Source: Candidatus Cloacimonadales bacterium | Lineage (GTDB): Bacteria; Cloacimonadota; Cloacimonadia; Cloacimonadales; JAIOQZ01 | Assembly (NCBI GenBank): GCA_963665815.1 | Contig: OY762463.1 | Span: forward strand, 917,469 to 981,468 | Reading direction: 5' to 3' | Length of the DNA stretch: 64,000 bases | Shown here: positions 2,674-51,842 of the stretch, one piece after another | How the letters are laid out: each line of letters opens with the position of its first letter | Numbering within the stretch: position 1 is the stretch's first letter | Position numbers and translations under genes: made by a program | Notes under the pieces: generated by a model | Told to the model about the DNA's origin: nothing | What the model saw: only the letters and a program-made list of their open reading frames with translations | Database searches by the model: none

Positions 2674-4836
2674 ATGGATGCTACCATAGTCGGAATTTCG
2701 ATTTTTTTTGTAACATTGATCCTCAACTGGGGAAAACAATATAAACCGCTTTATGTTGATGATGGTAACTGGTTCTATCAGACTGTCTTTTCAAAAATAG
2801 GAAAAAGGCTTTACTATTACGATAAACACGTGGAAGACATAGAGTTCGATCTATTGAGACCTCATGGATATTTTACCATTGACTGGCTCGCCTCCAAGTT
2901 TCATTTTAAGAATACAGACAACGAAAAGTTCATTCAGCAATTCAAGATGATTTCTTACGCGCTGACCTCTTCCCTGCTTGCTGTCACTAGTTTTTTTCTT
3001 TTTAACAGCTATATTGCCGGAGTTACTGCTGGAGTAATTTTTTCCGTTGCTACCGGATCAGGAAGAACAACTTATTCGGATATAACCTATGCTGAATGGT
3101 TTATAATTTTCCCACTCACTCTCGCCATACTGGTTCTTCATCTGGGAGGAAACGAACTCTGGAGTTTTGCAGCAGCCGGAATCATTTTAGGCTGGTCATT
3201 ACATATTAAAATTACATCTATCGGTTTTGCTGTGATTATTCCTCTGTTCTATCTTTCAGAAAACTGGATTCCGGAAATTGGAATACTGGCTGGAAGTCTG
3301 ACACTGTTGATGTTTTTACCGGTAGTCCTGATTACGATATCAAGGAGCTCGCATAAATCACAAATAATCACATATTACCTGAAGAATTTCTTCAACCCTG
3401 TTATAATAGGAACACTTCTCGTGCTGCAGAAATGCGGAATCTGCAAGATCAAGAAAGGCAATTCTGCCGATAAGCTTATATCTGTTTACGGCACATACAC
3501 AAAAGGCAAATGGGATATCAGCAATTCCTTTAGTAAGGAACTTAAGTCACTGCAAAACATGATCAAACCTATCTGGAAAAATTTTGATATATTTATCCTC
3601 CTCACTTTAGCCGGATCATTAAGCCTGCTTCTGGATTACAACAAGCATGTAATGTTACTGACAATAATACTGGTGGTTAACTTTATCCTGATTCTTATAC
3701 AGAAGAATTATTTCAGACCTAAAATAAATACACTCTGGATGCCTGTATCAATGATAACAGGGTTCCTTCTCACGAAGATGAACTTCAATACAATGGAAGG
3801 ATTACTTATTGCTTTTATTCTGCTTTATGCATTATTGAAAACACTTATACCTGTGATTTCAGGATTGAAGAAGGAAAACAGAGTTAAACTTAACGATTAT
3901 ACGGATGATATCCAGAATCTATTCAGATTGAGTAGAGAAATAGGACAATTCATTAAAAGTATATCCAAACCTGAAGATAACCTGCTGGTATGGGGAAATT
4001 ATTCCAATATTTACATTTATGCTGAACGAAAAGCCCATATGGCATTATATCCGTTTATGTTCCCGAACAATAAGATAATAAACGATAAAATTCTTACCAG
4101 AGCATTTCATAACAAGACAGCTCCTAAATATATCCAGATATTTGACTACAATATTAAAGACAGGTGGAATCCTGACAGAATCCAGATTTATGTGAAAGCT
4201 CCATATAAAGTGATCAAAACATTCAAGTTTACTGATAAAAAGAAGAAAGTACATCCGTTTCACTTGATGGAGAGACAGGATGCCGCTTACAAACAGATAC
4301 TTCTTTCTAAGCTTTCAAGCTGTAAAGAATCTACAGAAAAGGCAATTCTTATCAGAAAACTTAAAAACATTGATATAAATGATTTTGAACTCAAGTATTA
4401 CAATGATACTGAGAGAATGAGTCTTGATCAGAAAATAGAATACATTCATGCTCACCTGAGTAACAATGATAATCAGGCTGTGAAACAAAGCATATTAGGT
4501 CGATTACTCATTGAACTGGGCAATATTGAAGGAGCAATTCAATTGTTGAACAGTGCGTCAGCAGAATATACAGATTACAGAGATTTAATCTCAATGGGCG
4601 AAATAGCCTTCATGCAGGGATCTTTACATATTGCTGCAGACTGCTTCAAGCAGGCTATAGCCTTCAATCCTATATGCGGAGAAGCTTATAATAATCTTGG
4701 CGTATATTTCAACCAGATTGGTGATAGAAAAAACTCAGAAACATGTTTCCGAACAGCTATAATGATCAGCCCGGAATACAACGAAGCAAAAGACAATCTT
4801 AATACACTATTAAAAGAAGTAAACAGGAATAAATAA
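2674..4836 (+). CDS. Polytopic GT-C-like (ArnT/PMT-type) membrane glycosyltransferase with C-terminal TPR repeats
   Basis: 720 aa. About 12 hydrophobic helices in the first ~400 aa. Acidic DD pair (2758-2763) right after TM1, as in GT-C first-loop motifs. The last ~130 aa are TPR-like (AFNPICGEAYNNLGVYF, ISPEYNEAKDNL). Confidence 0.6.
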   Translation: MDATIVGISIFFVTLILNWGKQYKPLYVDDGNWFYQTVFSKIGKRLYYYDKHVEDIEFDLLRPHGYFTIDWLASKFHFKNTDNEKFIQQFKMISYALTSSLLAVTSFFLFNSYIAGVTAGVIFSVATGSGRTTYSDITYAEWFIIFPLTLAILVLHLGGNELWSFAAAGIILGWSLHIKITSIGFAVIIPLFYLSENWIPEIGILAGSLTLLMFLPVVLITISRSSHKSQIITYYLKNFFNPVIIGTLLVLQKCGICKIKKGNSADKLISVYGTYTKGKWDISNSFSKELKSLQNMIKPIWKNFDIFILLTLAGSLSLLLDYNKHVMLLTIILVVNFILILIQKNYFRPKINTLWMPVSMITGFLLTKMNFNTMEGLLIAFILLYALLKTLIPVISGLKKENRVKLNDYTDDIQNLFRLSREIGQFIKSISKPEDNLLVWGNYSNIYIYAERKAHMALYPFMFPNNKIINDKILTRAFHNKTAPKYIQIFDYNIKDRWNPDRIQIYVKAPYKVIKTFKFTDKKKKVHPFHLMERQDAAYKQILLSKLSSCKESTEKAILIRKLKNIDINDFELKYYNDTERMSLDQKIEYIHAHLSNNDNQAVKQSILGRLLIELGNIEGAIQLLNSASAEYTDYRDLISMGEIAFMQGSLHIAADCFKQAIAFNPICGEAYNNLGVYFNQIGDRKNSETCFRTAIMISPEYNEAKDNLNTLLKEVNRNK

Positions 4837-4848
4837 CAGGAGAATAAT

Positions 4849-7800
4849 ATGCTGCAAAAAGATGATCCAAAAGTAATTATGATTTCACCCGATACAATTA
4901 GATATGCAATGATCGAAGAATTCCAGATCAATGAGTACACCGGTGAAGTACTGGATGGAGACTGGGACAGAAAGATTCAGAAATTTGATGACAGAATAGA
5001 TTTCTATGAATCATTCAAGATGAGACTAAAAGATATTCCGTGGCAGGAAACACCATATTTTGAACGAGTTATGAGGGAGATTAATCAAGGCTATGAAAAA
5101 TGGGGTTGTACCACTGAAGAACAGTTTTTGAACAGATGCATTCGTCTGGAAGGAATCTACCTGAACATGAAAGAAAACGGCTACATCCAGAATCCCGATA
5201 AAGATTATGCAGCAGTCAATATCGGTCGAGACGGAGAAATAATTTTTAATAACGGCAGACACAGAATCTGTTTTGCAAAAATCCTGAATATCCCTGAAAT
5301 ACCTGTTAAAATTACTGTTCGTCACAGCGAATGGAATCAGTTCAGAGAAAAAGTACTGACTTATGCATCAAAACATAATGGAGTTGTTTATGCTCCTTTG
5401 AAACACCCTGATTTAAAAGATATCCCTTCTCTGCATGCAGGAAGATTCCCTTATATTAAAAAGCATATCAATCCCGATTCTAAAACAGTCCTTGATATAG
5501 GGACTCACTGGGGTTACATGTGCAGTAAGCTGGAAGAAGAATGCGGTAAAGAGTGCTTTGCCATAGAAAACGGAAAAGGAACTTTCTACTATCTGGAAAA
5601 AATCAGAAAAGCTAATGAGCAGAATTATCACACAATCTTTGCCAACATATTTGATTTTACAAGGAAATACAACAAGTTTGATACAGTATTGGCCCTGGCA
5701 ATATTCCATCATTTTATAAAGACACCTGAATTGCACCAGGAACTTGTAGATATGCTTAACAGGCTGGAAATGAAAGAAATGTTCCTTCAAGCTCACAGAA
5801 CGGATGAACCACAGATGCAGGGCGTTTACAGAAACTACAGTCCTGACGAGTTTGCTCAGTTTATAGTTGATAACTCCTGTCTAACTCACTATAAGGAAAT
5901 ATGTGATTTTGAAGGTAGAAAACTGTTTCATATATACAAGAAAGAAACAGTTCAAATTGGTAGAAAATCCTTCAAAGGTCTCGGTGGTTTGACAATTAAA
6001 ACACACAGAGAAGCTCCTGTAAAAGAATCTCAAAAGTTACCACCTTCAAAAAAAGTGATGTTCCTTGGATTTGTGAATGGAAGCTATCCACAGATTCTTA
6101 ACAAAATCTATAATAAATACAAAGCATTTAAAAAGATTCATAATAACACAGAATTACTGCTGATTGGTAAAGGAGACGATAAACTTCCTGCAGACTTACC
6201 ATTCAAGTACTATGATATCCGCAAGATAATGCCTAAGGCCAATTTCCTGCAGACAATGCAGCTTTCTGTGAGTATTGTCAACTCTTTGATTGATGAGATG
6301 AAGCCGGATTATATATATATGCGTTACCCCTTAGCAAATGAACACACTGTATCATTTGTGAAGAAACATAAAAACCTGATTGTAGAATTCCAGACCAAGC
6401 AGTTTGAAGAATTCGAGAAAAGCAGTCCTAAGCTTTTGAATTTGGAAAAACAATACTGCAAAGAATTTCTGAGTAACATCGATACAATAAGTGCAGTAAC
6501 AAAAGAGATCGCTGATTATGAAAAAAACATATCAGGTAAAAACATTCCAACATTTATTTTTACAAATGGTGTTGATGTAAGCTCCAGACCAGAGAACGAT
6601 GTGCTTCAAGAAGATATTATTCATATAGCTTATGTTTCCATGTATGCACAATACTGGCAGGGAATCGACAGAATTCTGTATGGAATCAGTAACTCAAACG
6701 CAAAAAACATAAAACTGCACTTCATAGGTAATGTAACTGATGATGTAAGATCCATGATTAACCAGCTTGGTTTGAATAACATTGTTGAGCTGCATGGAGT
6801 AATGGATGAGAAAGGCATTGATTCTATTCTGCAAAAATGCTCAGTTGGAATAGGAGCAATGGCTGTACACAGAAAAGGATTGAAAGAAGCTGCAGCAATC
6901 AAACTGAGAGACTACTGCTCACGAGGAATTCCATTCGTTTATAGCGGAGATGACTCTGATTTTTCAACGAACCTTCCATTTGTACATCAGTATCCTCTGA
7001 ATGATGAACCGCTCGATTTCAGTCATATCATAAAACTTGCAAAAGAGCATAACAATTCAGAATCACGCAAAAAGATAAGAGACTATGCATTATCACATCT
7101 GGACTGGAATGTTAAAGCTGAAAAAATAATGAGTTTCCTGTACAGTCTTGATAGCGGTGAGCCTATTGTAGACTCTGCTGATGAATACAACACCTTAAGG
7201 AAGCTGGCTACAAACCTCAAAGCTGATAAAGGAAATCTTGAAATAACCAAACAACTGATTGCCGAAATGCTAAGGAAAAAAGACGAAAAGATCACATCCG
7301 GTCCTTTAGTGTCAGTAGTTATTCCATATTACATGCAGCCTGAAACAATTGTTGAGACACTGCTTTCAGTATATAATCAGTCATACAGGAATTTCGAAGT
7401 AATTCTGGTAAATGATGGAGACACTAAAGAAGTTGAAGATGTTGTAAATAATAATGCTCAGCTCTTCCCTGATCTTAATCTTAAGTATTTCAGAAAGGAA
7501 AACGAAGGACTGGCAGCAACCAGAAACTTTGGTATTTCCAAGGCTGAAGGTAAATATGTGCTTCCTCTTGACTCAGATGACATGCTTGCATCGGATTTTC
7601 TGAAAGAAACAGTCAACTATCTGGAACAGCACAAAGACATAGATTTTGTATTTACTGAAACCCTGTTTTACGGAGCTAAGAATGAGATATGGGCATTCAG
7701 GGATTTTGATCCATCCTATCTGATCAAGCGAAATATGATGACCTGTACAACTCTATTCAGAAAAGAAGTCTGGGTTCAAACAGGTGGATACAGAACAAAC

Positions 7801-10800
7801 ATGAAACATGGATATGAAGACTGGGATTTCTGGATTACAGCTTCGGAAAATGGATTCAAAGGGGGAAACATTCATCTCCCACTCTTCCTCTACAGACGCA
7901 AGAAAGATTCTATGTTAGAAAACAGAGTAAAGTATGACCATATTGCTAAAGCTCAAATAGTTAAAAATCATCCAAATATATTCATTCAGAATCACCCTCA
8001 GGAGGAACAGCTCCTTAAAGAAAAAATCGGATTGATTCCGGAAGCATTACAAAAAAAGCCTTCCGGAGAAGAGCCTGAGCAAAACAGGAATAGTTTCAGC
8101 TACCCTGACATGAGCAATATTAAACAAGAATTATCTGCAAGAAACCTTACACCATCTAATCAGATGCTATCTGGTTCTAAGCCCAGAATCCTCTTTGTCT
8201 GTCACAATTTTCCCCCGCATAAATACGGTGGAGCTCAATTATACGCTATGCATCTGGCAAAGAAGATTAATGAGCTTGGCATTGCTGATGTAGAAATTCT
8301 ATATCCCTTATTCCGGGGAGAAATCCGACAGTTTGGTCTGATTGAAACAGAGTTTGAAGGATTGAAAGTTTTTCAACTTGCCAAAGACTTTTCTAAAGGT
8401 TTTGAGTTAGCAGTTAGGCATCCCTATGTAGAGAAAGTATTCGATAAATTCCTCAGTATGCGTCATTATGATGCTATTCACTTTCATGGACTGGGGCAGT
8501 TGACTCCTGTTCCTATTGAAGTAGCATACAAAAAAGGAATCAAAACTGTCATGACGTTCCATGAGCACTGGTTCCTGTGCTTCTTCTGGTTCTTGATGTC
8601 AAATCGTGATTCCGAAATATGTTCAGGCCCTGAAAGCATAGATAAATGCACAAAGTGTGTACTGCAAAAATATCAGAGTATACCTGATATCAGAAAAAAC
8701 TATAATGATGTACGTCATTTTATTGCATCCAGATTCGAGTATTACAAAATGATGTTCGATATTATTGATTACAAGTTTGCACCGAGTCAATATCTTATTA
8801 ACAAGTTCGAGGAATATGATTTTAGAGGTATTCAGGTAAATAATCTCGGTATGGAACCTATGGAATATGTTGCAAAGAAAAAACATTCCGGTATAAGATT
8901 CGGGATTATCGGTCAGATTTCACCAAGAAAAGGAACGGATATTCTTCTAAGAGCTTTTCAAAGTCTGAGCAAATCCGAAAAAGACAAACTTCACGTACAC
9001 GGAAAATGTTATTTTGAAGGTTACATGAACATGATTCTTCAAATGATTTCAACAACCACAGGAGCTGAGTATCAAGGTGCTTATACACCTGAAGATCTTC
9101 CACATATCCTTTCTGAAATCGATGTCCTTATTGTTCCATCTTTATGGGAAAACTATCCACTTGTTGTACAGGAAGCATTTCTATGTAAAGTCCCCGTGAT
9201 AACAAGTAATACAGGTGGATTTCCAGAAGTTGTAAAACATGGAACAAACGGACTTCTCTTCAAAGCTGGATCTTATATAGACCTTGCAGAAAAAATGCAG
9301 TACATTTTAGATAATCCTAATAAAGTTCTTGAATTCAGCAATAATATCAAACCTGTAAAAACACTTACTGAAGATGCAGAGTACTACACCAGTTTATACA
9401 AGAAAAAAATAGAAAGATGTAATGACACAAAATTCAGTGCTGCTCATGTAAATAGCATATCCCCAGAAAAGAGAGAACTGAAAAACCTGACTGTACAATT
9501 TTATATGCAGAAGTCTGTTCACTGGCCAATATATGAGAATTTATATGAACATGTGAAACTGCAGCCGGAAGTTGATAAGATTGTCTTTTGTATTCCACGA
9601 CTTACTGAAGTGGTAAACTCAGGGTATTATGATGAAATTTCCAGACTAATTGACAAGGTTGACGAAGTTGTTATGCATCCCGCAGATGCAAATGCAGATG
9701 TTACTTTTATTGCCAGCACTGTACAAGGTAAAGTCTGGAATTGCGGTAAGGTTGTCAGTATAGGTCACGGAACCATATCTAAAGGATTTTTCTTCAGCGA
9801 TAATGTCTGGGTACATAGAGAAAACTGGGTAGACTTGCTTTGCGTTCCCGGTAACTATGCTTATCAGCTCTATAAGAAAATATTGTCTACAAACATTGCT
9901 GCAACTGGCATGCCTAAACTGGATTCAGCTTTCAATAAAGATTATGATAAAAGCTATCTCTGTCAAAAATACAATCTTGACCCCAACAAAAAAATCGTGC
10001 TGTATGCTCCAACATTCAATACCAATCTCAGCAGTGTGTATAATTTTGCAGAAAGATTCCATGAACTTGACCAGATGGGTTTCTATACACTTGTAAAACT
10101 ACATGGAACAACTCTGCCAAGAATGTTCAGCCATTACAGAGCACTTGGAGCAAATTTCAGTAACATTGTTTTTGTGGAGGAGTCAAATCTTGCCTATCTT
10201 CTTGCCGGCTCAGACATTATGATTTCTGATGTATCTTCGGCATTTATGGAGTTTATGGCTCTGGATAAACCTGTAATTCTGTATAATAATCCGGAAAGAT
10301 TCCAATATCACGGTTTCCATGAAACAGATATTGAATGGGCATGGCGAGATCTTGGAACCCAGATAAACAGCTTTGATGAACTGCTCAGGATACTTCCCGG
10401 TATTCTCAGGAATGGAGACGGCAAATCTGCTATCAGAAAAAAATATGCTGAAACGCTCTTGGCTGATCTGGAAGGAAAGGCATCAGAAAGAGTTTGGAAT
10501 GCTGTTAGGGAAGTCTTACCTGCTGAATCAACTGTTGATGTAAGTCTGCTATCTTTTGTGATAGTGGTTACTGACGATAACTGGATTGTTACAAGAACTC
10601 AGATTCAAGCCTGTGATAAATATTTCCGAGTTCCAATGGAAATTGTTGTTGTCAGGAATGGAGTCTCAGACGAAACCGCAAAATCAATGCAATACCTCAT
10701 AGACTACCACGAATACATTAATTTCAGATTAATCGATATAGATGAGACATCCTGGCACAATGCGTTTGAGAGGGGAGTGGAAGATACTTCTGGAAACATT

Positions 10801-12537: not shown

Positions 12538-12551
12538 TAAAGGATGCTGAT

Positions 12552-13580: not shown

Positions 13581-14701
13581 GACTACTTATTCTGAATTAT
13601 GAATATCCTCCTATTGGTGGAGGTGCTGCAATGCAGACAAAACTGCTTGCTGAGAAATTTGCAGAACGTGGTCATAAAGTAACTGTGATTACTTCTCACT
13701 TCAAGAACCTGCCATGGATAGAGCTGAAAGAAAACTTGCAGATTATCAGAGTACCGGCAGGACGTAAAAGAGCCGACCGCAGCACAATGCCAGAGATGCT
13801 TATGTATCTGATGATGGCGAAACTCGTCTATCTGTATCAGTTAGTCTTTAACAGACCTGTCGCTGTACTGAACTTTTTTCTTATGCCAACCGGAGCATTG
13901 GGATTCCTTTGCAAGATGTTGTTCAGAATACCCTTTATTGTATTGTTGAGAGGAGCTGATGTTCATGGATTCATTGTTCCGGAACACAGACGTAAACTTA
14001 AGTACTTCAAACCTTTTTCAACATTTCTGGCACATTATGCTGATAAACTTGTTGCCGTCAGCAGAGATCTTGCTGATATGGCAGAAGATATATTTAATGT
14101 AAAAAACGTAAATGTTATAGAAAACTCAGTTCCTTTATGCCATGGAGAGCGAAAAATACCATCCGAATTTACCAGATTCCTTTTTGTTGGTAGACTTTCT
14201 CTGGAAAAAAGTATTGATGATATAATAACAGCATTCTCAAAAACCGAAAACAGCGTTCTGGAAATACTGGGTGACGGACATATGAGAGAGAGTCTGGAAA
14301 GACTTGTTCATAAGCTGAGGATTGAGGACAGAGTCAACTTTCATGGCTGGGTTTCCCGAGAAGAAGTAAACAGCTGGATGTTAAAATCTCATTGTCTCGT
14401 ACTCTACTCCAGAGTAGAAGGCATGTCGATGTCCGGGTTAACTGCTTTCAGCAGCGGTTTGCCAATTATTGGAAGCAATGCAGCCGGAATGAGAAATTTC
14501 GTGATTGACAAAGTGAATGGCTTCATAGTTGAATTGGGTAACCCTGATGCACTCGCAGAGCTGATGATAGAAATCACCGAGAAAAAGTATAATCTTGAGG
14601 AAATGAGTGCAAATTGTCGCAGAATCGTTGAGGAAAAGTACTCAGTTGATAAAGCTGCTGATAAATATCTTACTCTGATAAATCAGATGATTGGGAGATA
14701 A
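13577..14701 (+). CDS. Glycosyltransferase family 4
   Basis: MRLLILNYEYPPIGGGAAMQTKLLAEKFAERGHKVTVITS. C-terminal SRVEGMSMSGLTAFSSGLPIIGSN. 4-nt overlap with the upstream gene. Confidence 0.85.
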   Translation: MRLLILNYEYPPIGGGAAMQTKLLAEKFAERGHKVTVITSHFKNLPWIELKENLQIIRVPAGRKRADRSTMPEMLMYLMMAKLVYLYQLVFNRPVAVLNFFLMPTGALGFLCKMLFRIPFIVLLRGADVHGFIVPEHRRKLKYFKPFSTFLAHYADKLVAVSRDLADMAEDIFNVKNVNVIENSVPLCHGERKIPSEFTRFLFVGRLSLEKSIDDIITAFSKTENSVLEILGDGHMRESLERLVHKLRIEDRVNFHGWVSREEVNSWMLKSHCLVLYSRVEGMSMSGLTAFSSGLPIIGSNAAGMRNFVIDKVNGFIVELGNPDALAELMIEITEKKYNLEEMSANCRRIVEEKYSVDKAADKYLTLINQMIGR

Positions 14702-14702
14702 A

Positions 14703-16544
14703 ATGAAAATAGATACCGCCGCTGAAAAACTGAAAGAGAAGATTTTAAATCTGGATATAAATTCCCTGAATGCATCAGATTACTTTAAAAACTACCTGAG
14801 ATCTTATCAGGATGATATTGATGCCGTAATTCCGCGTTATGTACGGATTTTGAAAGAATCACTTAAAGGTCATAGACGTTCATGTACAGCCTTTCTGGAC
14901 TATGGTGGAGGAAGCGGATTCCTGACGATGCTTGCCAAGCTGTCAGGTATCCACAGAGTAGTATATATGGATATCTCTGAGGAAATCCGCAATGGGGCGG
15001 CAGAACTTTCTTCCGTGCTGAGTATACCTGTTGACGCTTATTATACCGGCACCTATGAGAGTTTGGAGATCGATGAGAAGTTTGATGTTATAGCTAACTA
15101 TGACGTACTTGAACATGTCTATGATCCGTTTAAGGCATTTAAAGCTTTATCTGAGCTGCTTACTGTAAATGGTACAATATACATGGCTTCCGGAAGTAAC
15201 ACTTACCATCCTGTAATCTACTGGATGATGACAAAGAAGCACGAAATATCTGAATATTCAGGCACGGTATCCGGTAAAAAAATGGACGCCAAAGAACCTT
15301 TCTTTGAGATTAGAAAAACAATAATTAAAACAAATTTTCCATCTCTTTGTGAAGATGAAATTTCAAAGCTGGCAGAGAAAACCAGAGGTTTCAGAGAAGA
15401 AGATATCATCTCTATTGTTGATATGTATACTAAATCCGATTTGATGCCATTAAAAGTGCATAAAAACAATACCTGTGATCCATATACAGGAAACTGGGAT
15501 GAAAACCTGATATCCTATTTCAGTCTGGCGCGCAAACTCAGAACGCTTTTTAAGAGAGTTGAAATTCTCCCGGGATACTATCCTGAAGTAGACGCGGAGT
15601 TCAAGCGAACTCCGGATGTTAAGGATAAAAACATTATAAACAAAGTTTATCCATATCTCAGCTACCTGTCTGTAAAGCTTGCTCCGTTTCTAAATTCCCT
15701 GATAAGACTTCTTCCGGGAAATTCGAAGTTTACTGTTGCACCATATTATGTCATTAAAGCCTCTTATAAAAAGAACCATGCTGATGATTCTACCCAAAAA
15801 ATAGCAGAAATTTATGATAAATGGGATGCTTGGAATGAAGATGTAAAGCCCATGGATATAACTCTACCATACACTCCGGGAATTTCATTGAAGAAAGTCG
15901 TGGAATTTCTTGATAAGAAGAAGTTTTCAAAAGAATCGGCTATACTTGATGCAGGTTGCGGCAATGGAAATGCTGTTTTAACAATGAAGAATATGGGCTA
16001 CAATCCGGAAGCGTGCGATATATCGAAGCAGGCATCCGTTGTACTGAACAACTTTAAGCAGGGAAGTGTTACCGACTTACCATACAATGATGAAAACTTT
16101 GATCTGGTTTACTCACTTTCTGTTCTACACCATCTGGATGATATAGAGCAGGGACTTCGGGAATTTGCCCGAGTACTGAAAACAGGTGGTTACTTCATTG
16201 CTTCCTTCCATACCAGAAATTCTCTTTACTATCTGGAAACACTTGTTAAAAGAAAACTATTTCCGAAGAAGTTTAAACATTACGATTATGTGACTTTCTC
16301 TACCGTTTCGGAACTCCTTGATATGTTCCGTAAAAATGGTTTTGCCGTTGAAAGTTTTGATGGAATTCATCCTTTCTGGCTGATTAACAAGTTTATAGAG
16401 ATAAGCGAGTTTCTTAAAAGAAAAGGTATTGTAAATTCTAACCCCTTTGTTAAGCTCGAAAAAATACTGTCCGGACTTATTCCACAAAGAATGAAAACCG
16501 AAATTTCTTATCACGCCATATTTGTATGTAAAAAGGTGAAATAA
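14703..16544 (+). CDS. Tandem double class I SAM-dependent methyltransferase
   Basis: The track start 14691 is TTG. ATG 14703 is preferred (GGGAGA 4 nt upstream). Two motif-I copies are present: FLDYGGGSGFL and ILDAGCGNGNAV, followed by FDLVYSLSVLHHL. Confidence 0.8.
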   Translation: MKIDTAAEKLKEKILNLDINSLNASDYFKNYLRSYQDDIDAVIPRYVRILKESLKGHRRSCTAFLDYGGGSGFLTMLAKLSGIHRVVYMDISEEIRNGAAELSSVLSIPVDAYYTGTYESLEIDEKFDVIANYDVLEHVYDPFKAFKALSELLTVNGTIYMASGSNTYHPVIYWMMTKKHEISEYSGTVSGKKMDAKEPFFEIRKTIIKTNFPSLCEDEISKLAEKTRGFREEDIISIVDMYTKSDLMPLKVHKNNTCDPYTGNWDENLISYFSLARKLRTLFKRVEILPGYYPEVDAEFKRTPDVKDKNIINKVYPYLSYLSVKLAPFLNSLIRLLPGNSKFTVAPYYVIKASYKKNHADDSTQKIAEIYDKWDAWNEDVKPMDITLPYTPGISLKKVVEFLDKKKFSKESAILDAGCGNGNAVLTMKNMGYNPEACDISKQASVVLNNFKQGSVTDLPYNDENFDLVYSLSVLHHLDDIEQGLREFARVLKTGGYFIASFHTRNSLYYLETLVKRKLFPKKFKHYDYVTFSTVSELLDMFRKNGFAVESFDGIHPFWLINKFIEISEFLKRKGIVNSNPFVKLEKILSGLIPQRMKTEISYHAIFVCKKVK

Positions 16545-16545
16545 G

Positions 16546-17763
16546 ATGGGAAAAAAGTTTTTGATTACTGGAGTATCCCTAAGGAGTAAAGGCGGTTCTG
16601 CCATGGTACAGGCTGCCTGTAATCTCATAGGTAAACAGCATAACTACAGTGTTCTCAGTTTCTATCCGGAGCTGGATAAGGCTGCAATATCAAGTATTCG
16701 GGATACCCACAGAATCAATGTAATATCCTATTCAACTTCATTAGGCAGAAAAATAGCTTTTAAATTAGAAGCATTATTGATGCTGCTTGATTACATATTT
16801 GGTTATATCTCAGGGAATAAGCTTCTTGTTAAACTCAGCAGATACAGTAGAGAGATTTCAAATGTAAACGGAATTCTGGAGATTCACGGAATAGCTTTTT
16901 CGGATTACTATGGATTTAATGATGCTCTTACTTCATTTCTGAAAATGAAAATTGCCAAATTCAGTAAAACACCTTTTTTCTGCTTACCTCAGTCCTATGG
17001 TCCCATATCGTCTAATCTGAACAGAAAATTAGCTGAATATGCCCTTGAAAGTACGGAGTTAGTCCTTCCAAGAGGAATGAAATCACTGAAACTCGTTGAA
17101 GAGTTCAGATTGAATAATCCACATGTGGAATTCATGCCAGACCTAGCTTTTGCATTTAATAATCCACTTGAAGAAAACACACTTAATTTACTGAATAAAT
17201 TAAATATAGACAAGCACAGTAAATACGCTGCAATAATTCCAAACATACTTTTTCTGAGATGGGGATTTCCGGAAACTGTTACTTATTATGCTGAGATCAT
17301 CGACCATTTTCATAATAAATACGGATATAAATTGATCCTGATTCCACATCAGTATAATGACGCTGGAACAGACGACAGAACATTCAATCAGGAGATATAC
17401 AATAAAGTATCTGACAAAAGCTGCCTGATTAAAATAGATGATATGCTGACAGCCAATGAGATAAAGTCACTGATTTCAGTTTGTGATTTCACATTGTGCT
17501 CAAGATTCCATGGTATGATCTCATCTCTGAAAATGGGAGTTGAACCGTTTGTAATCAGCTGGGCAGAGAAATATCATGAGATCATGGATTTGTATGGTCT
17601 CATTGAAAACGTTCAGGACCATAAGCAAGTAAATGTTAAAAACTTTATTGATAGAATAGAATCGCGTCTCAAAGTTGAATCAAAAGAACAGATAATGACT
17701 AAGAATGAGGAGTTTATGAAAACACTCAAGGAACTCCGGGAATACCTACGTACGAGGTGTTAA
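16546..17763 (+). CDS. Polysaccharide pyruvyl transferase family protein (WcaK/CsaB-like)
   Basis: PQSYGPI and CSRFHGMISSLKMGVEPFVISWAEKYHEI match the conserved R-x-H-G/A...G-V-P block of PS_pyruv_trans proteins. Confidence 0.7.
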   Translation: MGKKFLITGVSLRSKGGSAMVQAACNLIGKQHNYSVLSFYPELDKAAISSIRDTHRINVISYSTSLGRKIAFKLEALLMLLDYIFGYISGNKLLVKLSRYSREISNVNGILEIHGIAFSDYYGFNDALTSFLKMKIAKFSKTPFFCLPQSYGPISSNLNRKLAEYALESTELVLPRGMKSLKLVEEFRLNNPHVEFMPDLAFAFNNPLEENTLNLLNKLNIDKHSKYAAIIPNILFLRWGFPETVTYYAEIIDHFHNKYGYKLILIPHQYNDAGTDDRTFNQEIYNKVSDKSCLIKIDDMLTANEIKSLISVCDFTLCSRFHGMISSLKMGVEPFVISWAEKYHEIMDLYGLIENVQDHKQVNVKNFIDRIESRLKVESKEQIMTKNEEFMKTLKELREYLRTRC

Positions 17764-17764
17764 A

Positions 17765-18415
17765 TTGCTGAAAAAACTATCTCAATATATAGCAAGAAAA
17801 AGATTCAGAAATCACATTATCCAACCCTGGACAAGTTCTGAGTTCAAAGAGCAGCTTGTCAGAGCAAGATCAAGACTGGACAATGAGAGAAACCATATTC
17901 TCCGAGAATTCCTGCAGCATGCTTTAAAACAACAGGGAGATGTCGCTGAATTCGGTGTATACAAAGGTGGAACAGCCTGGCTTATGGCTGAGATTATGCA
18001 AAAGACAGATAAAAAGCTGCACCTTTATGATACGTTTGAAGGTTCCCCTGAAAAATCGGGAAATGATGTTGGTGAAAGAAAGGTCTTTTATCGTGATGTT
18101 AGCCTGAAAGAATTGAAAGATCAATTTCATACATTCAGCTTTGTTAATTTCCATGCAGGACTTTTGCCGGACTCAATCGGATCAGCGGATTTTACTCAAT
18201 TATGCTTTGCCCACCTGCATCTGAATCTTCATGAAGGCACCAGAGGTACTCTTGATTATATTTTCAGTAAAGTGGTTGATAAAGGAATCATTCTTATTGA
18301 AGATTATGGGATTATTGAATGCTCAGGTGTCAGAAAAGCTGTAGATGAGTTCTGTGAGTCGAATGAACTAAAACTAATCTATCTTCCAACATGTCAGGGA
18401 GTTATAATAAAATGA
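17765..18415 (+). CDS. TylF/MycF-family O-methyltransferase
   Basis: GDVAEFGVYKGGTAWLMAEIM and LHLYDTFEGSPE are family hallmarks. TTG start 1 nt after the upstream stop; no nearby in-frame ATG. Confidence 0.7.
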   Translation: MLKKLSQYIARKRFRNHIIQPWTSSEFKEQLVRARSRLDNERNHILREFLQHALKQQGDVAEFGVYKGGTAWLMAEIMQKTDKKLHLYDTFEGSPEKSGNDVGERKVFYRDVSLKELKDQFHTFSFVNFHAGLLPDSIGSADFTQLCFAHLHLNLHEGTRGTLDYIFSKVVDKGIILIEDYGIIECSGVRKAVDEFCESNELKLIYLPTCQGVIIK

Positions 18416-19761
18416 AACACATAGGATTTGTACCGGAGAATGGCTTATGTACCGGATGTGGTGCCTGCACAGGGATTTGCCCTGTTAATGCAATTACACC
18501 GGTATGGGATAAATACGGTGACAGAGTACCAGAAGTTGATAGCGCAAAATGTATTTCCTGCGGACTCTGCGTGAAGGTCTGTCCCGGGTACAAGGTTGAC
18601 TATAAACATCTCAATCTAGAATGCCATATACAGGAATCTGACACGCTCAAAGTAGGTGTTGGCTCATGTAAATCCTGCGATATAATATACACTGAGAACA
18701 GAGAATCATTTCAGGAAGCAACATCCGGCGGAGTTGTGCGTGAATTACTTGCCACTCTTATTGAGAAAGGTGAAATCAACGGAGTATTGATGATAACAGC
18801 TCAGGAAAAATTGAGTTTTCCTTTCTATGCCCCATATAAAGTATTTACTGATCCCGATGAGATCCGCAAGCATAAAGTTCATTCCCGATATTGCCCTGCC
18901 CCACTTTTGGAAGGACTCAAGGAAATTGAGAGTGATGATAAAGTGTATGCTATTGTAACCCTCCCATGCCACACGCACGCAATACGGAATTTACAGGCTG
19001 AGAAGCCGGTCTGGAAGAAAAAGCTAAAATACCTGTTTGGGCTGATATGCAGCGGCACACCAACAGCAAATGCCAATGCTTATCTATTTGCTGATAATGG
19101 GGTTGATGAAACTACCCTGGACTGGGTTGATTATCGTTACGGTGAATGGCCCAAAGGTGTTTACGGTAGAGACAACGAAGGCAAAATGCACAACGTTCGT
19201 AAAATGGGTGGACTAAAAGAGCAGAACAGATTATTCCAGATGATCGGAATGGTTTATATGAGTCCATACTTCTGGAGACGACGATGTCTTTTCTGTGCTG
19301 ACTTTTTCAATCAATATGCAGATATAGCCTGCGGTGACCCTTGGGTCAGAAAGTACTGGAAAGGCTCGATAAAAGACGGTCTCAAGGGTGGAACTCTCAC
19401 AATCATCAGAACTGAGCATGTTCAAAAGCTGGTAGATGAAATGCTTGCAGCCGGAAAGCTGGACAAAAGAATGGAAGTTGAACCTGACGACATTCATGTT
19501 TCCATGGGTGTTTTCCAGCATAAAAGAATCAAACCGTTTGAATCATACAAAAAGCATGTACATAAATTTAACATGGAATTCCCTGATCATCAGCACTTTG
19601 AAAATCCATATAATGATTTGAATAAGCGGGAAGGATACTTCAATCTTTTGAAAAGTCAACTAACATTAAAGCGAAGTCGATGGTGGATATTTAAGTACAT
19701 TCAATTTGTTGAAGAAGGCTTTGCTTTCATAAAACGTAAAATCAAACGAGAAATAGCATAG
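18412..19761 (+). CDS. FrhB/FdhB-like (coenzyme F420 hydrogenase beta-type) Fe-S flavoprotein, copy 1
   Basis: ATG 18412 (ATGA overlap with the upstream stop) matches the paralog's N-terminus. Two ferredoxin motifs: CTGCGACTGICP and CISCGLCVKVCP. Conserved TLPCHTHA and CLFCADFF...ACGDPW. Confidence 0.75.
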   Translation: MKHIGFVPENGLCTGCGACTGICPVNAITPVWDKYGDRVPEVDSAKCISCGLCVKVCPGYKVDYKHLNLECHIQESDTLKVGVGSCKSCDIIYTENRESFQEATSGGVVRELLATLIEKGEINGVLMITAQEKLSFPFYAPYKVFTDPDEIRKHKVHSRYCPAPLLEGLKEIESDDKVYAIVTLPCHTHAIRNLQAEKPVWKKKLKYLFGLICSGTPTANANAYLFADNGVDETTLDWVDYRYGEWPKGVYGRDNEGKMHNVRKMGGLKEQNRLFQMIGMVYMSPYFWRRRCLFCADFFNQYADIACGDPWVRKYWKGSIKDGLKGGTLTIIRTEHVQKLVDEMLAAGKLDKRMEVEPDDIHVSMGVFQHKRIKPFESYKKHVHKFNMEFPDHQHFENPYNDLNKREGYFNLLKSQLTLKRSRWWIFKYIQFVEEGFAFIKRKIKREIA

Positions 19762-19770
19762 GTAATATAG

Positions 19771-21123
19771 ATGGAACATATTGGATTTGTCCCTGAAAAC
19801 GGAATGTGTACCGGATGCGGTGCCTGCACAGGAGTTTGCCCGACCGGAGCAATATCTTCCGTCTGGGATGAGTACGGTGACAGAGTCCCCAAAGTAGATG
19901 AAGACAAATGCATTGAGTGCTCTTTATGCGTATTAGTGTGCCCCGGACATAATGTAGATTATGCAAAGCATGCTGAGCAATGCAGCTTTACTACCATGAA
20001 AAGTCTGCAGTCAGGTTTACAGAGTACCGATAAATGTTCTGTACTTTATGCAAAAGATGAAGAGTTACTCAGCACATCAACATCAGGAGGTCTGGCAAGA
20101 GAACTGGCAGCTTCTCTCATTGAAGAAGGAAAAGTAGACGGAGCATTGATGATTGTCTCTGAGAACCATGTAAAACTGCCGTTATATGCAAAATACAAAG
20201 TATTCACTGATCCTGAAGAGATCAGATCACAGGATAAACATTCCATGTATTGCCCTGCCCCACTTCTGGAAGGTTTGAAAGATATTGATGATGATGACAA
20301 AACCTATGTTATAGTTACACTCCCCTGTCATACACATGCAATTCGAAAATTACAGGCAGAAATGCCACGCTGGCAGAAGAAGATAAAGTATGTTATTGGG
20401 CTTCTATGCGGAGGAACTCCCACTGCAAAAGCAAGCATGTTTCTGTTTGAAGAAAATGGAATTGACTACCACGACATTGACTGGATTGACTACCGATACA
20501 AAGGTGCGAGAGAAGGTGTTTACGGTCGAGATTCATCAGGAGAACTGCACAACGTACGTATCTTTGGTGGACTGAACGACAACAGTCGAAAAAAGCAGAT
20601 GACCGGAGCAATATTTATGAGCCCCTATTTCTACCGCAGAAGATGCCTTTTTTGTGCAGACTATTTTAATGCTTATGCAGATGTTTCCTGCGGTGATCCA
20701 TGGATAAAGAGCTTCTGGAAAGACTCTCTTAAAAAAGGAGATAACTGGGGAACACTTACAATCACCAGAAACCAGGAAATTGACGATTTTCTTAAAAAAC
20801 TACAATCTAATGGCGTTCTGGAGACACGACTGGAACTGACTGCCGAACAAGTCACTGAATCAATGAGTCCTTTCCAGAGAAAAAAGATTAAGTTGTTCAA
20901 CTGCTACAGAAAATATACCGGGTTGTTCAACATGATGTTCCCGGAACATGTCGGACTGAAAAATCCACATAGAAACTACTCATCGTTCAGAGCTTTTATC
21001 AATCTTCTTAAAAACAAATTTGCACTGAATCAAGAGTTATGGTGGACATTCAAGTATGTTCAGTTCCTGGAAGAAGCTGCAGCTCTTATCAAAAGAAAAC
21101 TAAGAATTAATTCTCCGGATTAA
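19771..21123 (+). CDS. FrhB/FdhB-like Fe-S flavoprotein, copy 2 (tandem paralog)
   Basis: Colinear with copy 1 along its full length (MEHIGFVPENGMCTGCGACTGVCP, CIECSLCVLVCP, TLPCHTHA, CLFCADYF...SCGDPW). Confidence 0.75.
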   Translation: MEHIGFVPENGMCTGCGACTGVCPTGAISSVWDEYGDRVPKVDEDKCIECSLCVLVCPGHNVDYAKHAEQCSFTTMKSLQSGLQSTDKCSVLYAKDEELLSTSTSGGLARELAASLIEEGKVDGALMIVSENHVKLPLYAKYKVFTDPEEIRSQDKHSMYCPAPLLEGLKDIDDDDKTYVIVTLPCHTHAIRKLQAEMPRWQKKIKYVIGLLCGGTPTAKASMFLFEENGIDYHDIDWIDYRYKGAREGVYGRDSSGELHNVRIFGGLNDNSRKKQMTGAIFMSPYFYRRRCLFCADYFNAYADVSCGDPWIKSFWKDSLKKGDNWGTLTITRNQEIDDFLKKLQSNGVLETRLELTAEQVTESMSPFQRKKIKLFNCYRKYTGLFNMMFPEHVGLKNPHRNYSSFRAFINLLKNKFALNQELWWTFKYVQFLEEAAALIKRKLRINSPD

Positions 21124-21125
21124 AC

Positions 21126-22421
21126 ATGTTTATAATACACGTACCTGAATTTAATTACAATAAAATACAATATATATTTAAAGTTTTACTTGAAGTATGG
21201 TCAGACCTGAAACCAGTCTACTACAAGCATGAATTTAACTACATTGAAATATCTTCTGAGCAAGGTAAAATCAGGCTGCATTCTGAGATGTTCAATATCA
21301 TCAAAGAGCGGAATCTGGTAAAGGAAGACCTCAGTATTAATAATATTGAGGTTGAGAACATCAGAACTAAAACCCTGTTTAAATCCGACAAACCGGCTCT
21401 TGTCATAAAAGATGGATTGATTGAAGTAAATGCGGATATAATCGGATCAGCCTTTTTCCTGCTGACAGGATATGAATCCGCAATCCACAATCCTCTCGAT
21501 AAGCATGGACGATTTGAAGCTAAAAACTCGCTCATTGAAGATGTAATAGATAAGCCTGTCGTTCACGATTATTGCAATATCATCCTTAGTCTACTGAGAA
21601 AAATCCATCTCAATATTGATGTTCCGAAAAACGGTTTCAAAGTCATTCCAACTCACGATGTTGATCATCCGACTGAGTATATGAACCTACCTCTGCCCCA
21701 CCTGCTCAAGAACTGTGCAGGAGATGTAATCCTGAGAAAGCAGAGCTTTGTTCCAAGGCTATTGAACTATACAAAGAGCAGATCATCAAGCTTTGCAGAT
21801 CCTTTTGACACATTCGACTATATGCTCGATCAAGAGAAAGACTTTGAATCAATCTATTACTTTTTCTTTGGTGATTTTAACTGGGATAACCCATCATACA
21901 GAATCGATGAGTTTATACCATTGCTTGAAAGAATAAGAAAGCAACTGAACAGTAATATAGGAATCCACTTTGGATTGGGGACATACAATAATCAAGCAAA
22001 GATGACAGCTGAGATGAAGAAAGCAATCTCGTTAGTTCCAGGGCTTAAACATTCAAGACAGCACTATTTATCGCTTAATGTTCCTGAAACTTTGTGTAAT
22101 CTGTCAGAGACAGGAATCAAAATGGATTCTACTTTTGCATTCAGGGATAAAGCCGGATTCCGCTGTGGCGCTTGCCGACCTTTCCCACTATACGACTATA
22201 AGAATGATTCAATACTGGAAACATGGGAGAAACCCTTGATACTGATGGAGTCTCAAATAATCGATAACCCTGAATTAACCTGTTTAGAGAAAGCTGAGCA
22301 AATATTATCCGTTAAAAACACAGTAAAAGAATATGAAGGTGAGTTTGTATTCTTATGGCATAATCACAGGTTAGTTGAGGAGAATGAGAAACACCTTTAT
22401 GAGCTGACAATTAAGGGATAA
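21126..22421 (+). CDS. Putative polysaccharide deacetylase-like protein (CE4-superfamily-like, THDVDHP motif)
   Basis: 431 aa. IPTHDVDHP metal-site-like motif after a ~170-aa N-terminal domain. Operon context. Assignment is from memory of similar EPS-locus proteins. Confidence 0.45.
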   Translation: MFIIHVPEFNYNKIQYIFKVLLEVWSDLKPVYYKHEFNYIEISSEQGKIRLHSEMFNIIKERNLVKEDLSINNIEVENIRTKTLFKSDKPALVIKDGLIEVNADIIGSAFFLLTGYESAIHNPLDKHGRFEAKNSLIEDVIDKPVVHDYCNIILSLLRKIHLNIDVPKNGFKVIPTHDVDHPTEYMNLPLPHLLKNCAGDVILRKQSFVPRLLNYTKSRSSSFADPFDTFDYMLDQEKDFESIYYFFFGDFNWDNPSYRIDEFIPLLERIRKQLNSNIGIHFGLGTYNNQAKMTAEMKKAISLVPGLKHSRQHYLSLNVPETLCNLSETGIKMDSTFAFRDKAGFRCGACRPFPLYDYKNDSILETWEKPLILMESQIIDNPELTCLEKAEQILSVKNTVKEYEGEFVFLWHNHRLVEENEKHLYELTIKG

Positions 22422-22432
22422 AGGGTAATGAA

Positions 22433-23608
22433 ATGAAAATAATTATGATTGGTCATATTAATTCGGAAACAAGTGATGCAACCAGCATCCACTTCAGCGA
22501 AACTGCAAACGCTTATAGCAGACTTGGACATTCTGTGAGTGTTATCAGTCCACAGGTAACACGAGATATTTACGATACTGAGATAGAAATCAAAGATTAT
22601 CCTGTTAAGTATGAGGAATCGCTTAAAAATGCCTTCTTGCACAGCTTTTGGATATATAAAAAGTTGTTTAAGGTCATAACACCGGATACCGATCTGATAC
22701 ATGTTCGCTGGCGACTATTTCCTGCAATATTAGTCCGATTGCTCTGTTGGCTGAAGGGTTGTTTCCCGCATATTCTGACAGAACACAATGGTTGGCTTGA
22801 TCTGGAAATTAAGATTCAGAGAAGCTCAAAACTGATTGCCTGGATTGGCAAAGCGCTACAGATAGCTGACGCAATGACAGCCGACCAGACCCTGACTGTG
22901 ACAGATGGAATTCGTAAACTGCTTATTGACTCTGGAATACTGCCTGATAAGATTTTCACAGTTGGAAACGGTACAAATATTTCTCACTTCTATCCTTTGG
23001 AAAACAAATCCGGATTGAAACAATCGCTACTGGGAGTAGATGGTACAATTATTGGTTTTATCGGCAATATTTCAAAGTGGCAAGGTATTGATGATATTGT
23101 TGATAGCTTTGCTAAAGTAAACTGTAACTTTAATAATGTTTATCTGCTGATTGCCGGTTCCGGAATGTATAAGGAAGAGCTGGAGAAGAAAATCCGGCAG
23201 ACTGATTATGCTGATAAAATCATACTTAAACCCAACATACCTTATGACAAGGTAAATGAATGGATGAATGTAATAGATATTGCTGTTGCTCCCAAAACGA
23301 AGAAGCTTAACATTGTGGGCTACTCCCCTCTCAAAATCCGTGATTATGCGGCAGCAGGTTGTGCTGTTGTTTCAACGGATGTAAACGGTATTTTAGAGCT
23401 GGAAGAGCATGGATGGCTCAAGACATATAATCCCGACAACCCGGAGAGCATGGAAATCCTGCTTTCCAACATGCTTCTGAACAATGATCATGAGGAAATG
23501 GGTAGAAAAGCCAGAAAATACGCCGAAGAGCATTTCAGCTGGATTAAGATTGCAGAGGCTATAATCGGGAATTTACCTGTAAAGGTAACTAATTCGAGAA
23601 GTAGGTAG
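22433..23608 (+). CDS. Glycosyltransferase family 4
   Basis: GNISKWQGIDDIV, LLIAGSG, IAVAPK...GYSPLKIRDYAAAGCAVVSTDVNG. Last gene of the co-directional block. Confidence 0.8.
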   Translation: MKIIMIGHINSETSDATSIHFSETANAYSRLGHSVSVISPQVTRDIYDTEIEIKDYPVKYEESLKNAFLHSFWIYKKLFKVITPDTDLIHVRWRLFPAILVRLLCWLKGCFPHILTEHNGWLDLEIKIQRSSKLIAWIGKALQIADAMTADQTLTVTDGIRKLLIDSGILPDKIFTVGNGTNISHFYPLENKSGLKQSLLGVDGTIIGFIGNISKWQGIDDIVDSFAKVNCNFNNVYLLIAGSGMYKEELEKKIRQTDYADKIILKPNIPYDKVNEWMNVIDIAVAPKTKKLNIVGYSPLKIRDYAAAGCAVVSTDVNGILELEEHGWLKTYNPDNPESMEILLSNMLLNNDHEEMGRKARKYAEEHFSWIKIAEAIIGNLPVKVTNSRSR

Positions 23609-43644: not shown

Positions 43645-43665
43645 AATTTCCTCCATTTATCCAAG

Positions 43666-51831: not shown

Positions 51832-51842
51832 AAGGTTATAAA

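Follow-up and report, generated by a model that had tools for sequence, protein, structure and literature searches.

A gene block of a Cloacimonadales bacterium predicted to pair a giant TagF-like enzyme with a rare GT-C membrane transferase in the assembly of an anionic glycan

TagF-like capsule polymerases of Gram-negative pathogens have already been characterised (PMC5974469, PMC11666461), and in the group 2 representatives Cps3D, Cps7D, Cps1B and CslB a TagF-like domain is fused to a glycosyltransferase (GT) domain of the GT-A or GT-B fold. On the membrane side, the Pseudomonas aeruginosa protein TfpW, a pilin arabinosyltransferase/oligosaccharyltransferase, spans the membrane with 11 transmembrane (TM) helices, depends on a DDx motif in its first periplasmic loop and ends in a tetratricopeptide repeat (TPR) domain on the periplasmic side (bioRxiv 10.1101/2020.04.19.049825), and the eukaryotic O-mannosyltransferases TMTC1-4 have a GT-C plus TPR layout (PMC7801869). 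Here we describe a block of genes, at positions 2674-23608 of a stretch of 64,000 nucleotides from a Candidatus Cloacimonadales bacterium (assembly GCA_963665815.1, contig OY762463.1, positions 917,469 to 981,468; the whole stretch is called the window below), that encodes a giant fused enzyme with TagF-like domains together with a GT-C membrane enzyme carrying TPR repeats. In our reading, held with moderate confidence, the block would assemble a complex, multiply anionic glycan in the cytoplasm, which is then handed over to the GT-C enzyme acting in the periplasm. Cloacimonadota are uncultured syntrophs that abound in anaerobic digesters, and to our knowledge nothing is known about their cell-surface chemistry. 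Each of the enzyme families encoded in the block is already known; new are the extreme fusion in the giant enzyme, its pairing with a sulfotransferase-TPR protein, a rare and unmodelled GT-C plus TPR clade, and a cassette-like exchange of the giant enzyme.

The ORF listing of the window gives 11 plus-strand open reading frames (ORFs) of at least 100 aa in the block, without room for extra genes, and not the 13 genes counted in a preliminary description of this DNA. They are listed here with their support in brackets; L numbers, here and below, denote other loci that carry a member of the g01 family.

2674..4836, plus strand: g01, GT-C glycosyltransferase by prediction, 720 aa (profile alignment, AlphaFold2/Foldseek, conserved residues)
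4849..12537, plus strand: g02, giant fused enzyme, 2,562 aa (Pfam and NCBIfam domain matches)
12552..13580, plus strand: g03, predicted cytoplasmic sulfotransferase with C-terminal TPR, 342 aa (Sulfotransfer_3 at 35 bits, cutoff 27; TPR matches)
13577..14701, plus strand: g04, GT4 glycosyltransferase (Pfam)
14703..16544, plus strand: g05, two class I methyltransferase domains (Methyltransf_11, two stretches; 45% identical homolog in L016)
16546..17763, plus strand: g06, polysaccharide pyruvyl transferase (PS_pyruv_trans, E 5.5e-29; 45% identical homolog in L016)
17765..18415, plus strand: g07, TylF-type O-methyltransferase (TylF, E 1.3e-20)
18412..19761, plus strand: g08, FrhB-like protein with two [4Fe-4S] motifs (Fer4, FrhB_FdhB_N and FrhB_FdhB_C; 48% identical homolog in L016)
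19771..21123, plus strand: g09, second FrhB-like protein with two [4Fe-4S] motifs (Pfam; paralog of g08, 53% identical)
21126..22421, plus strand: g10, DUF7033/VimE-like (CE4-type) deacetylase (DUF7033, E 1.5e-20; 37% identical homolog in L016)
22433..23608, plus strand: g11, GT4 glycosyltransferase, directly after g10 (Pfam; 46% identical homolog in L016)

The content reported in the preliminary description, namely a membrane protein with TPR, a giant enzyme, a sulfotransferase-TPR, two GT4 enzymes, four methyltransferase domains, a pyruvyl transferase, two FrhB-like proteins and a deacetylase, was confirmed throughout by Pfam and NCBIfam, with one of the methyltransferase domains located in g02, two in g05, and the fourth being the TylF-type g07.

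The g01 protein consists of approximately 10-12 TM helices followed by an alpha/beta domain (residues ~400-560) and a C-terminal TPR domain (~580-720), and carries the motif DDGNWFY directly after TM1. By hydropathy it is the sole polytopic protein of the block. Pfam and NCBIfam recognise in g01 only TPR repeats, and no direct Pfam match was obtained in its membrane part, PMT_2 included. On sequence and model grounds g01 is a GT-C enzyme, and this assignment is based on three lines of evidence. First, an exhaustive phmmer comparison of residues 1-580 with 1.84 billion representative proteins returned only 57 matches, and the weak tail of these carries Pfam PMT_2 above cutoff. Second, a local hhalign alignment of 35 g01-family members with these PMT_2 proteins gave a probability of 99.9 and an E-value of 4e-36 over 421 columns, and it pairs DDGNWFY in the first loop of g01 with DEGEYAY of the PMT_2 proteins. 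Third, an AlphaFold2 model based on a 36-sequence alignment (pLDDT 90.7, pTM 0.89) gave, as its best non-TPR matches in Foldseek, GT-C enzymes only: Stt3 (E 1e-6), DPY19, PglB, AglB, AftA and ArnT, with TM-scores of 0.38-0.49 when normalised by target length. This model supersedes an earlier one from a 3-sequence alignment (pLDDT 50.7), for which Foldseek returned TPR noise and a faint DPY19 match, and searches of proteins and the PDB with the full-length family profile were swamped by unrelated TPR proteins. Seven residues are invariant in the 36 family sequences (D29, G31, G169, K179, Y275, G441 and Y511). The preliminary description of g01 as a GT-C-like membrane transferase with TPR is thus borne out by the PMT_2 profile homology and the GT-C matches of its model.

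Relatives of g01 were found almost only in metagenome-assembled genomes (MAGs) of Candidatus Cloacimonadales/Cloacimonadota, with a few in Syntrophus and deltaproteobacterial MAGs, and the closest is 86% identical. Judged from these sequences the family is a rare, distinct GT-C plus TPR clade found mainly in Cloacimonadota, and one that is unannotated, as its membrane part has no Pfam model. With ArnT/PMT_2 (GT83/GT39) g01 has in common the GT-C fold, the acidic motif of the first loop and the profile-profile homology, whereas the missing direct PMT_2 match and its distribution set it apart. The closest bacterial architectural precedent is TfpW, which is of similar size and resembles g01 in TM count, first-loop motif, TPR and ArnT-like fold, a likeness of architecture. 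Unlike TfpW, g01 is not located beside pilin or D-arabinofuranose (DprE1/2) genes, and it has the extra alpha/beta domain before the TPR. Three-component periplasmic glycosylation systems combine a GT2, a small flippase and a GT-C enzyme, but the block contains neither a GtrA/ArnEF-like flippase, for which the intergenic gaps of at most 14 nt are too small, nor a GtrB/ArnC-like GT2.

The second gene, g02, encodes a protein without TM segment or TPR according to hydropathy and Pfam, and a word-indexed search of 5.8e9 proteins yielded only 3 homologs. An ortholog in a distant Cloacimonadota MAG, 54% identical over the full length, served as reference for the following domains.

4849..5448, plus strand: residues 1-200, domain of no recognised family with the motif IFNNGRHR (56% identical to the ortholog, motif kept)
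5455..5787, plus strand: residues 203-313, class I S-adenosylmethionine-dependent methyltransferase (Methyltransf_25, E 6.7e-5; 73% identical to the ortholog)
6046..7218, plus strand: residues ~400-790, divergent GT-B (Glycos_transf_1, E 3.7e-5 when scanned alone; stand-alone 377-aa homolog in L009)
7291..7953, plus strand: residues 815-1035, GT2 (GT-A) with intact DSDD (Glycos_transf_2, E 1.2e-31; motif kept in the ortholog)
8164..9393, plus strand: residues 1106-1515, GT4 (GT-B) with an EX7E motif (Glycos_transf_1, E 4.3e-35, and Glyco_transf_4; ENYPLVVQE kept in the ortholog)
9481..10518, plus strand: residues 1545-1890, TagF-like phosphotransferase domain 1 (Pfam Glyphos_transf; GHG and VKLHG motifs)
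10531..11148, plus strand: residues 1895-2100, degenerate GT-A-like domain (weak Glycos_transf_2 match, E 0.0036; 25% identical to the ortholog)
11464..12534, plus strand: residues 2206-2562, TagF-like phosphotransferase domain 2 (Glyphos_transf at 71.1 bits alone, cutoff 22.1)

When the whole of g02 was scanned, Glyphos_transf (PF04464) scored 145.6 bits, above its gathering score, in two matched stretches, and between them the two TagF-like domains share 38.5% identity. The nearest solved structures across both domains are Cps3D, TarL and TagF, and for domain 1 these are Cps3D 8qoy, the best match (E 1.2e-7), and TarL 8va1. His2420 in the VKLHG motif of domain 2 aligns with TagF His584 (LRMHY), which we take to be the second catalytic histidine of TagF, and domain 1 has the motif at the paralogous position. 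The motif GHG..SKG is kept in both domains and in the ortholog and aligns with Cps3D His500, which makes it a candidate counterpart of the first catalytic histidine of TagF, presumably His444. The TagF-like assignment made in the preliminary description is therefore upheld by the Glyphos_transf match, the nearest structures and the alignment with His584. A teichoic-acid-like polymer in a diderm, as inferred there, is not new, being already known from the TagF-like capsule polymerases (PMC5974469, PMC11666461).

The catalytic domains of g02 are 50-73% identical to those of the ortholog and the linkers 23-29%, and since the catalytic domains are conserved above the linkers in an ortholog that is 54% identical overall, all of them are predicted to be functional. 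By sequence, g02 thus fuses five well-conserved transferase domains (the divergent GT-B, the GT2, the GT4 and two TagF-like domains) and a methyltransferase. The degenerate GT-A-like domain has no DxD motif and reads MKEN at that position. For the GT2 domain the nearest solved structure is chondroitin synthase 2z86, and the best NCBIfam matches are EpsE and TuaG, not polyprenyl-phosphate sugar synthases. Residues 1-200 gave no Pfam match at E <= 1 and no PDB sequence match, and a ParB/Srx-like identity, considered from the GRHR motif, was unsupported by either database.

Compared with the capsule polymerases, which share the TagF-like domain, the fused GT-A or GT-B and a diderm host, g02 has two TagF-like domains, three GT domains and a methyltransferase in one chain of 2,562 aa, which would make it one of the largest fusion enzymes for glycan assembly. 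Both systems include TPR domains, but these lie in the polymerase chain there and on g01 and g03 here, and the block lacks the kpsMT/CS/DE context of the capsule genes and instead pairs g02 with a GT-C enzyme and a sulfotransferase. With the Gram-positive wall teichoic acid pathway and the pneumococcal Wzx-type route, g02 appears to share the TagF-type phosphodiester chemistry, as suggested by its His584 equivalent. Unlike wall teichoic acid loci, the block is without TagO, TagA, TagB, TagGH and LCP, lies in a diderm host and is predicted to add heavy sulfate, pyruvate and methyl decoration. Either of two modes of action may apply to g02, a processive polymerase, which would suit the capsule-polymerase-like domain pairs, or an assembly line that makes a defined oligosaccharide in a single pass, which would suit the seven transferase domains/proteins, the one degenerate GT-A and the Wzx-like gene described below for related loci. 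The domains of g02 are candidates for the enzymatic synthesis of teichoic-acid-like polymers, and TagF-like capsule polymerases are already used in vaccine-antigen production (PMC11666461).

The decorating enzymes and GTs of the block have neither signal peptide nor membrane span, which should place their action on the cytoplasmic side of the membrane. In g03, which contains the loop TQRSGTVF, the catalytic domain begins at residue 5 and there is thus no signal peptide. Matches of g06 to the NCBIfam models CsaB and WcaK were below their cutoffs. For the two FrhB-like proteins, a literature search yielded nothing usable that links such proteins to pyruvyl transferases. The g05 ORF opens at TTG 14691, but ATG 14703 is the likelier start.

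In the mechanism that we propose, a phosphodiester-containing oligosaccharide or polymer would be built on a polyprenyl carrier by g02, g04 and g11, after chain start by a priming enzyme encoded elsewhere. Sulfate would come from g03, a sulfotransferase of the type that uses 3'-phosphoadenosine-5'-phosphosulfate, pyruvate from g06, with the two FrhB-like proteins possibly processing pyruvate, and methyl groups from g05, g07 and the methyltransferase domain of g02, while g10 would carry out N-deacetylation. The TPR of the sulfotransferase probably docks g03 to the assembly complex. The lipid-linked product would then cross the membrane via a conventional exporter, unlinked or loosely linked to the block, and g01, an ArnT/PglB/TfpW-like enzyme with an invariant Asp in the first loop, would perform the periplasmic transfer, either ligating the glycan to its final acceptor or glycosylating it further, with its TPR domain holding the acceptor. 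The locus thereby predicts an unusually anionic glycan with phosphodiester, sulfate and pyruvate ketal groups. The preliminary description had named a lack of cytidine diphosphate (CDP)-alditol supply as a reason to give up a teichoic-acid-like product, but this would not be decisive, since nucleotide sugars can serve TagF-like domains as donors of hexose-phosphate as well (PMC5974469), and CDP-alditol synthesis is then not strictly required.

A bolder version, to which we give little credence, makes g01 the founding member of a new GT-C ligase clade, TfpW/TMTC-like and found mainly in Cloacimonadota. These ligases would take a cytoplasm-built, teichoic-acid-like glycan bearing sulfate, pyruvate and methyl groups and join it to proteins of the periplasm or cell surface, for example type IX secretion system (T9SS) cargo or an S-layer, with the TPR selecting the acceptor and swappable giant enzymes giving serotype-like diversity. 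If true, this would be a previously unknown protein or surface glycosylation system and a functional counterpart of the anionic lipopolysaccharide (A-LPS) anchor of Bacteroidota.

The preliminary description reported no Wzx/Wzy-like, ATP-binding cassette (ABC) transporter or priming gene in the block, and concluded that the glycan follows a route outside the classical Wzy, ABC and synthase pathways. The first statement holds: g01 is the only polytopic protein, no Walker A motif is present in the 11 block proteins, and the Pfam and NCBIfam profile scans of the block detected no overlooked flippase, polymerase, ABC transporter or phosphoglycosyl transferase. The second is weak in view of the related loci. 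In the two closest relatives, L004 and L003, a 457-aa protein with ~9-12 TM helices is encoded ~4.7 kb upstream of the g01 ortholog (L004 3949-5322, minus strand; L003 3856-5226), and it matches the NCBIfam model WZX_like with an E-value of 5.9e-8 (residues 33-431 against model positions 2-414 of 429). The gene ends a minus-strand run diverging from g01 that further comprises genes for a lipoprotein, a membrane-anchored Metallophos phosphoesterase, an Aminopep-family protein and a 310-aa protein of no assigned function. Positions 1-2700 of the window align with L004 7327-10027 at 86% DNA identity, and from the synteny with L004 and L003 a Wzx-like homolog is predicted 2-3.4 kb beyond the left edge of the window. 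In L020, a g01-family member is divergently adjacent to genes for Wzm (ABC2_membrane) and Wzt (ABC_tran and Wzt_C), the coordinates 7558-9724 (minus strand) and 10001-12256 covering the family member and Wzm/Wzt jointly, and beyond these lie genes for two sulfotransferases, methyltransferases, a radical SAM protein, a GT10 and a GT2. The missing export genes are therefore probably encoded outside the block, and with a Wzx-like gene near the two closest relatives and Wzm/Wzt beside the L020 member, their absence from the block does not support a new export route.

Two kinds of candidates in related loci were rejected. A cytidylyltransferase-like gene upstream in L004, considered as TagD, is RfaE domain II (207 bits, above cutoff), and other membrane or Walker A proteins considered as exporters turned out to be a 7TM-HD receptor, CNNM, an AI-2E transporter, ClpX and methyltransferases.

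Several observations weigh against cytoplasmic assembly with subsequent hand-over to g01. Scans that took in most ORFs of at least 100 aa in the 64-kb window found neither a priming enzyme nor an exporter. The Wzx-like match is a weak one, at 32 bits where the model's cutoff is 300, neither Pfam nor the PDB lends it support, and this gene was observed in the relatives L003 and L004 only, not in the present genome. Most g01-family loci have no exporter within 10 kb on either side, so that the linkage is loose, as is common for glycan clusters. Finally, the hydropathy profile of g01 shows 10 peaks compared to ~12 modelled helices in residues 1-396, and counts of 10, 11 or 12 helices are all defensible, which leaves the membrane side of the C-terminal domain ambiguous; in the 11-helix reading all invariant residues are periplasmic.

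The scarcity of linked exporters also bears on a different explanation, in which no Wzx/Wzy, ABC or synthase component contributes to the polymer and the GT-C enzyme itself hands the product over or translocates it, acting like the multifunctional flippase-transferase that TfpW has been proposed to be. It would fit with g01 being the only polytopic protein in the block and the only protein kept across the family loci. We consider it very unlikely, as a Wzx-like gene occurs near orthologous loci and Wzm/Wzt adjoins another family member, genes for export and priming often lie apart from the glycan cluster, and we know of no solved GT-C enzyme that translocates a polymer. The available precedent is TfpW, for which flipping, polymerisation and transfer have been proposed, not shown (bioRxiv 10.1101/2020.04.19.049825).

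The Wzm and Wzt genes of L020, with Wzt_C and the sulfotransferases nearby, would fit an ABC-dependent polymer, such as a group 2 capsule or an O9a-type O-antigen. In this case g02 would be a processive TagF-like polymerase, the sulfotransferase or methyltransferase would cap the chain, and the GT-C enzyme would do no more than add side-chain sugars after export, like YfhO, ArnT and the Gtr enzymes of three-component systems. The pairing of GT-B with TagF-like and of GT-A with TagF-like domains in g02 mirrors both known capsule-polymerase architectures (PMC5974469), and the GT2 domain of g02 could make a polyprenyl-phosphate sugar. On the other hand, no ABC transporter or Kps genes (KpsMT, KpsC/S/D/E) were found among the scanned ORFs of the window, there is no small GtrA-like flippase, TagF-like domain 2 is paired with a degenerate GT-A, and the candidate exporter near the closest relatives is Wzx-like rather than ABC. 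Overall, an ABC-dependent polymer seems unlikely to us, and hand-over of a cytoplasmic product to g01 after conventional export remains our preferred reading.

The preliminary description treated the 21 kb as one unit, and spacing within the block agrees with this. As it stated, the genes lie on the same strand with gaps of at most 14 nt or overlaps: measured junction by junction, the eight gaps are 12, 14, 1, 1, 1, 9, 2 and 11 nt, and at the other two the genes overlap by 4 nt (13577/13580 and 18412/18415). The 1-nt gap between g04 and g05 presumes that g05 starts at ATG 14703, behind a GGGAG motif, and the overlap 18412/18415 presumes a g08 start at ATG 18412, with the N-terminus MKHIGFVPENG parallel to that of its paralog g09. 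AGGAG- or GGGAG-like motifs precede several starts, and the GC content of 35-41% is unremarkable. Scans of the block for sigma-70 promoters and terminators gave counts at or below the shuffled expectation and were uninformative, with no plus-strand terminator-like site between the genes. From this layout the block would form one operon-like, tight co-directional unit of the Cloacimonadales bacterium, a conclusion that we draw with some reserve.

Comparison with other loci qualifies this picture. The loci L001/L005 of a distant MAG keep only the core g01, g02 and g03 (45, 54 and 55% identical, the g03 homolog adjoining g01 and g02), which is followed by an opposite-strand AsnB-like gene. In L016 the order is AsnB, a methyltransferase-TPR, g04-, g05- and g06-like genes, one FrhB-like gene, g10- and g11-like genes, the g01 homolog and a different giant; six of these genes are 34-48% identical to those of the window, and the g01 homolog 26%. 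The L016 giant comprises at least 2,504 aa with GT4, WbsX, TPR, two methyltransferase and two GT2 domains, and up to the contig end no TagF-like domain is visible. In L009 the g02 modules are present unfused around the g01 homolog, as a TPR-GT2, a GT-B and a GT4-TagF fusion. The order g01, GT4, AsnB, GT4 is found repeatedly in other family loci, g04 homologs of 30-34% identity lie beside g01-family genes in L006, L009, L010, L011 and L016, and the TPR can sit on a methyltransferase or GT2 instead of on the sulfotransferase. The recurrence of the gene set in rearranged form in the distant locus L016 indicates a real functional association. Judged from these sequences, the block is modular, with the GT-C enzyme and accessory enzymes being stable and the large transferase variable. 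The idea of a single unit therefore stands as far as the association of the genes is concerned, but not for its composition, since the giant enzyme is swapped and L001 holds g01-g03 only. That the giant enzyme changes while the GT-C and accessory genes are conserved suggests that the glycan is diversified by exchange of cassettes.

The same loci could be taken to mean that two or more independent modules were joined by chance, a g01-g02-g03 core and a g04-g11 decoration or linker set for another glycan. This would explain why L001 has only the core, followed by a gene on the opposite strand, and why L016 keeps the g04-g06 and g08-g11 types with a g01 homolog but has another giant with no visible TagF-like domain. 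Against it, all 11 genes of the window are at most 14 nt apart or overlap, with no terminator-like site on the plus strand between them, and the accessory set stays beside the g01 homolog in L016. We regard a chance joining as distinctly improbable, and continue with the block as a functional association.

AsnB/WbpS-type (asparagine-synthase-like) genes recur near the g01 family, in L001 (opposite strand), L009, L016, L017, L018, L020 and L022, and no such gene is present in the window block. In L017 (3297-13673) a family member, together with AsnB, a carbamoyltransferase, a B12-radical SAM protein and a GT2-TPR, is located directly upstream of fliC-fliD-fliS, a sequence context that hints that the family member of this organism may be connected with the glycosylation of flagellin. 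In L001 (3491-6588, minus strand), a UbiA-family prenyltransferase-like gene (502 aa, ~11 TM) lies ~3.4-6.5 kb upstream of g01-g02-g03, beside a gene for a 530-aa signal-peptide TPR protein whose C-terminal part is, by eye, possibly a beta-barrel. UbiA-type enzymes supply lipid-linked donors to some GT-C enzymes.

The Porphyromonas gingivalis Wbp/Vim pathway for the A-LPS linking sugar (PMC7468200) resembles the locus in another respect, as the order g10-g11 recalls vimE-vimF, the host has T9SS cargo, and AsnB-like genes recur in related loci. However, g10 reaches 131.7 bits against the NCBIfam VimE model, whose cutoff is 440, although nearly its whole length is aligned, and the block contains no Acetyltransf_6/VimA-like gene and no WbpA/B/D/E-like gene. 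The best NCBIfam match of g11 is TIGR04063, a PEP-CTERM-associated GT. We therefore treat the vimE-vimF resemblance as a lead and not as membership.

With regard to the host, the window encodes BamA (44844-47072, plus strand) and two T9SS cargo proteins with a Por_Secre_tail (32856-34415 and 42439-43656, both minus strand), which confirms the diderm, T9SS-bearing background given in the preliminary description. A pyruvate:ferredoxin oxidoreductase is also encoded, and together these genes fit an anaerobic diderm of the FCB (Fibrobacteres-Chlorobi-Bacteroidetes) group. The divergent left flank of the block carries two genes.

1275-2369, minus strand: lipoprotein (weak DUF4886 match; lipobox at the N-terminus)
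2-1255, minus strand: membrane-anchored Metallophos phosphoesterase (Pfam; N-terminal TM anchor)

On the right, the block is followed by a Peptidase_M1-like gene on the opposite strand (24287-26569, minus strand), and a similar gene, carrying a FlgD_ig domain, follows one distant g01-family locus. An IS3-type transposase gene (HTH_21 and rve integrase core; 30912-31649, minus strand) lies ~7 kb downstream of the block. Further on, a GT4/polysaccharide deacetylase fusion looks split into two plus-strand ORFs (51316-51831 and 51780-53240) that overlap by 52 nt, the N-terminal GT4 half being in the separate overlapping frame, which suggests a frameshift, a pseudogene or an assembly error.

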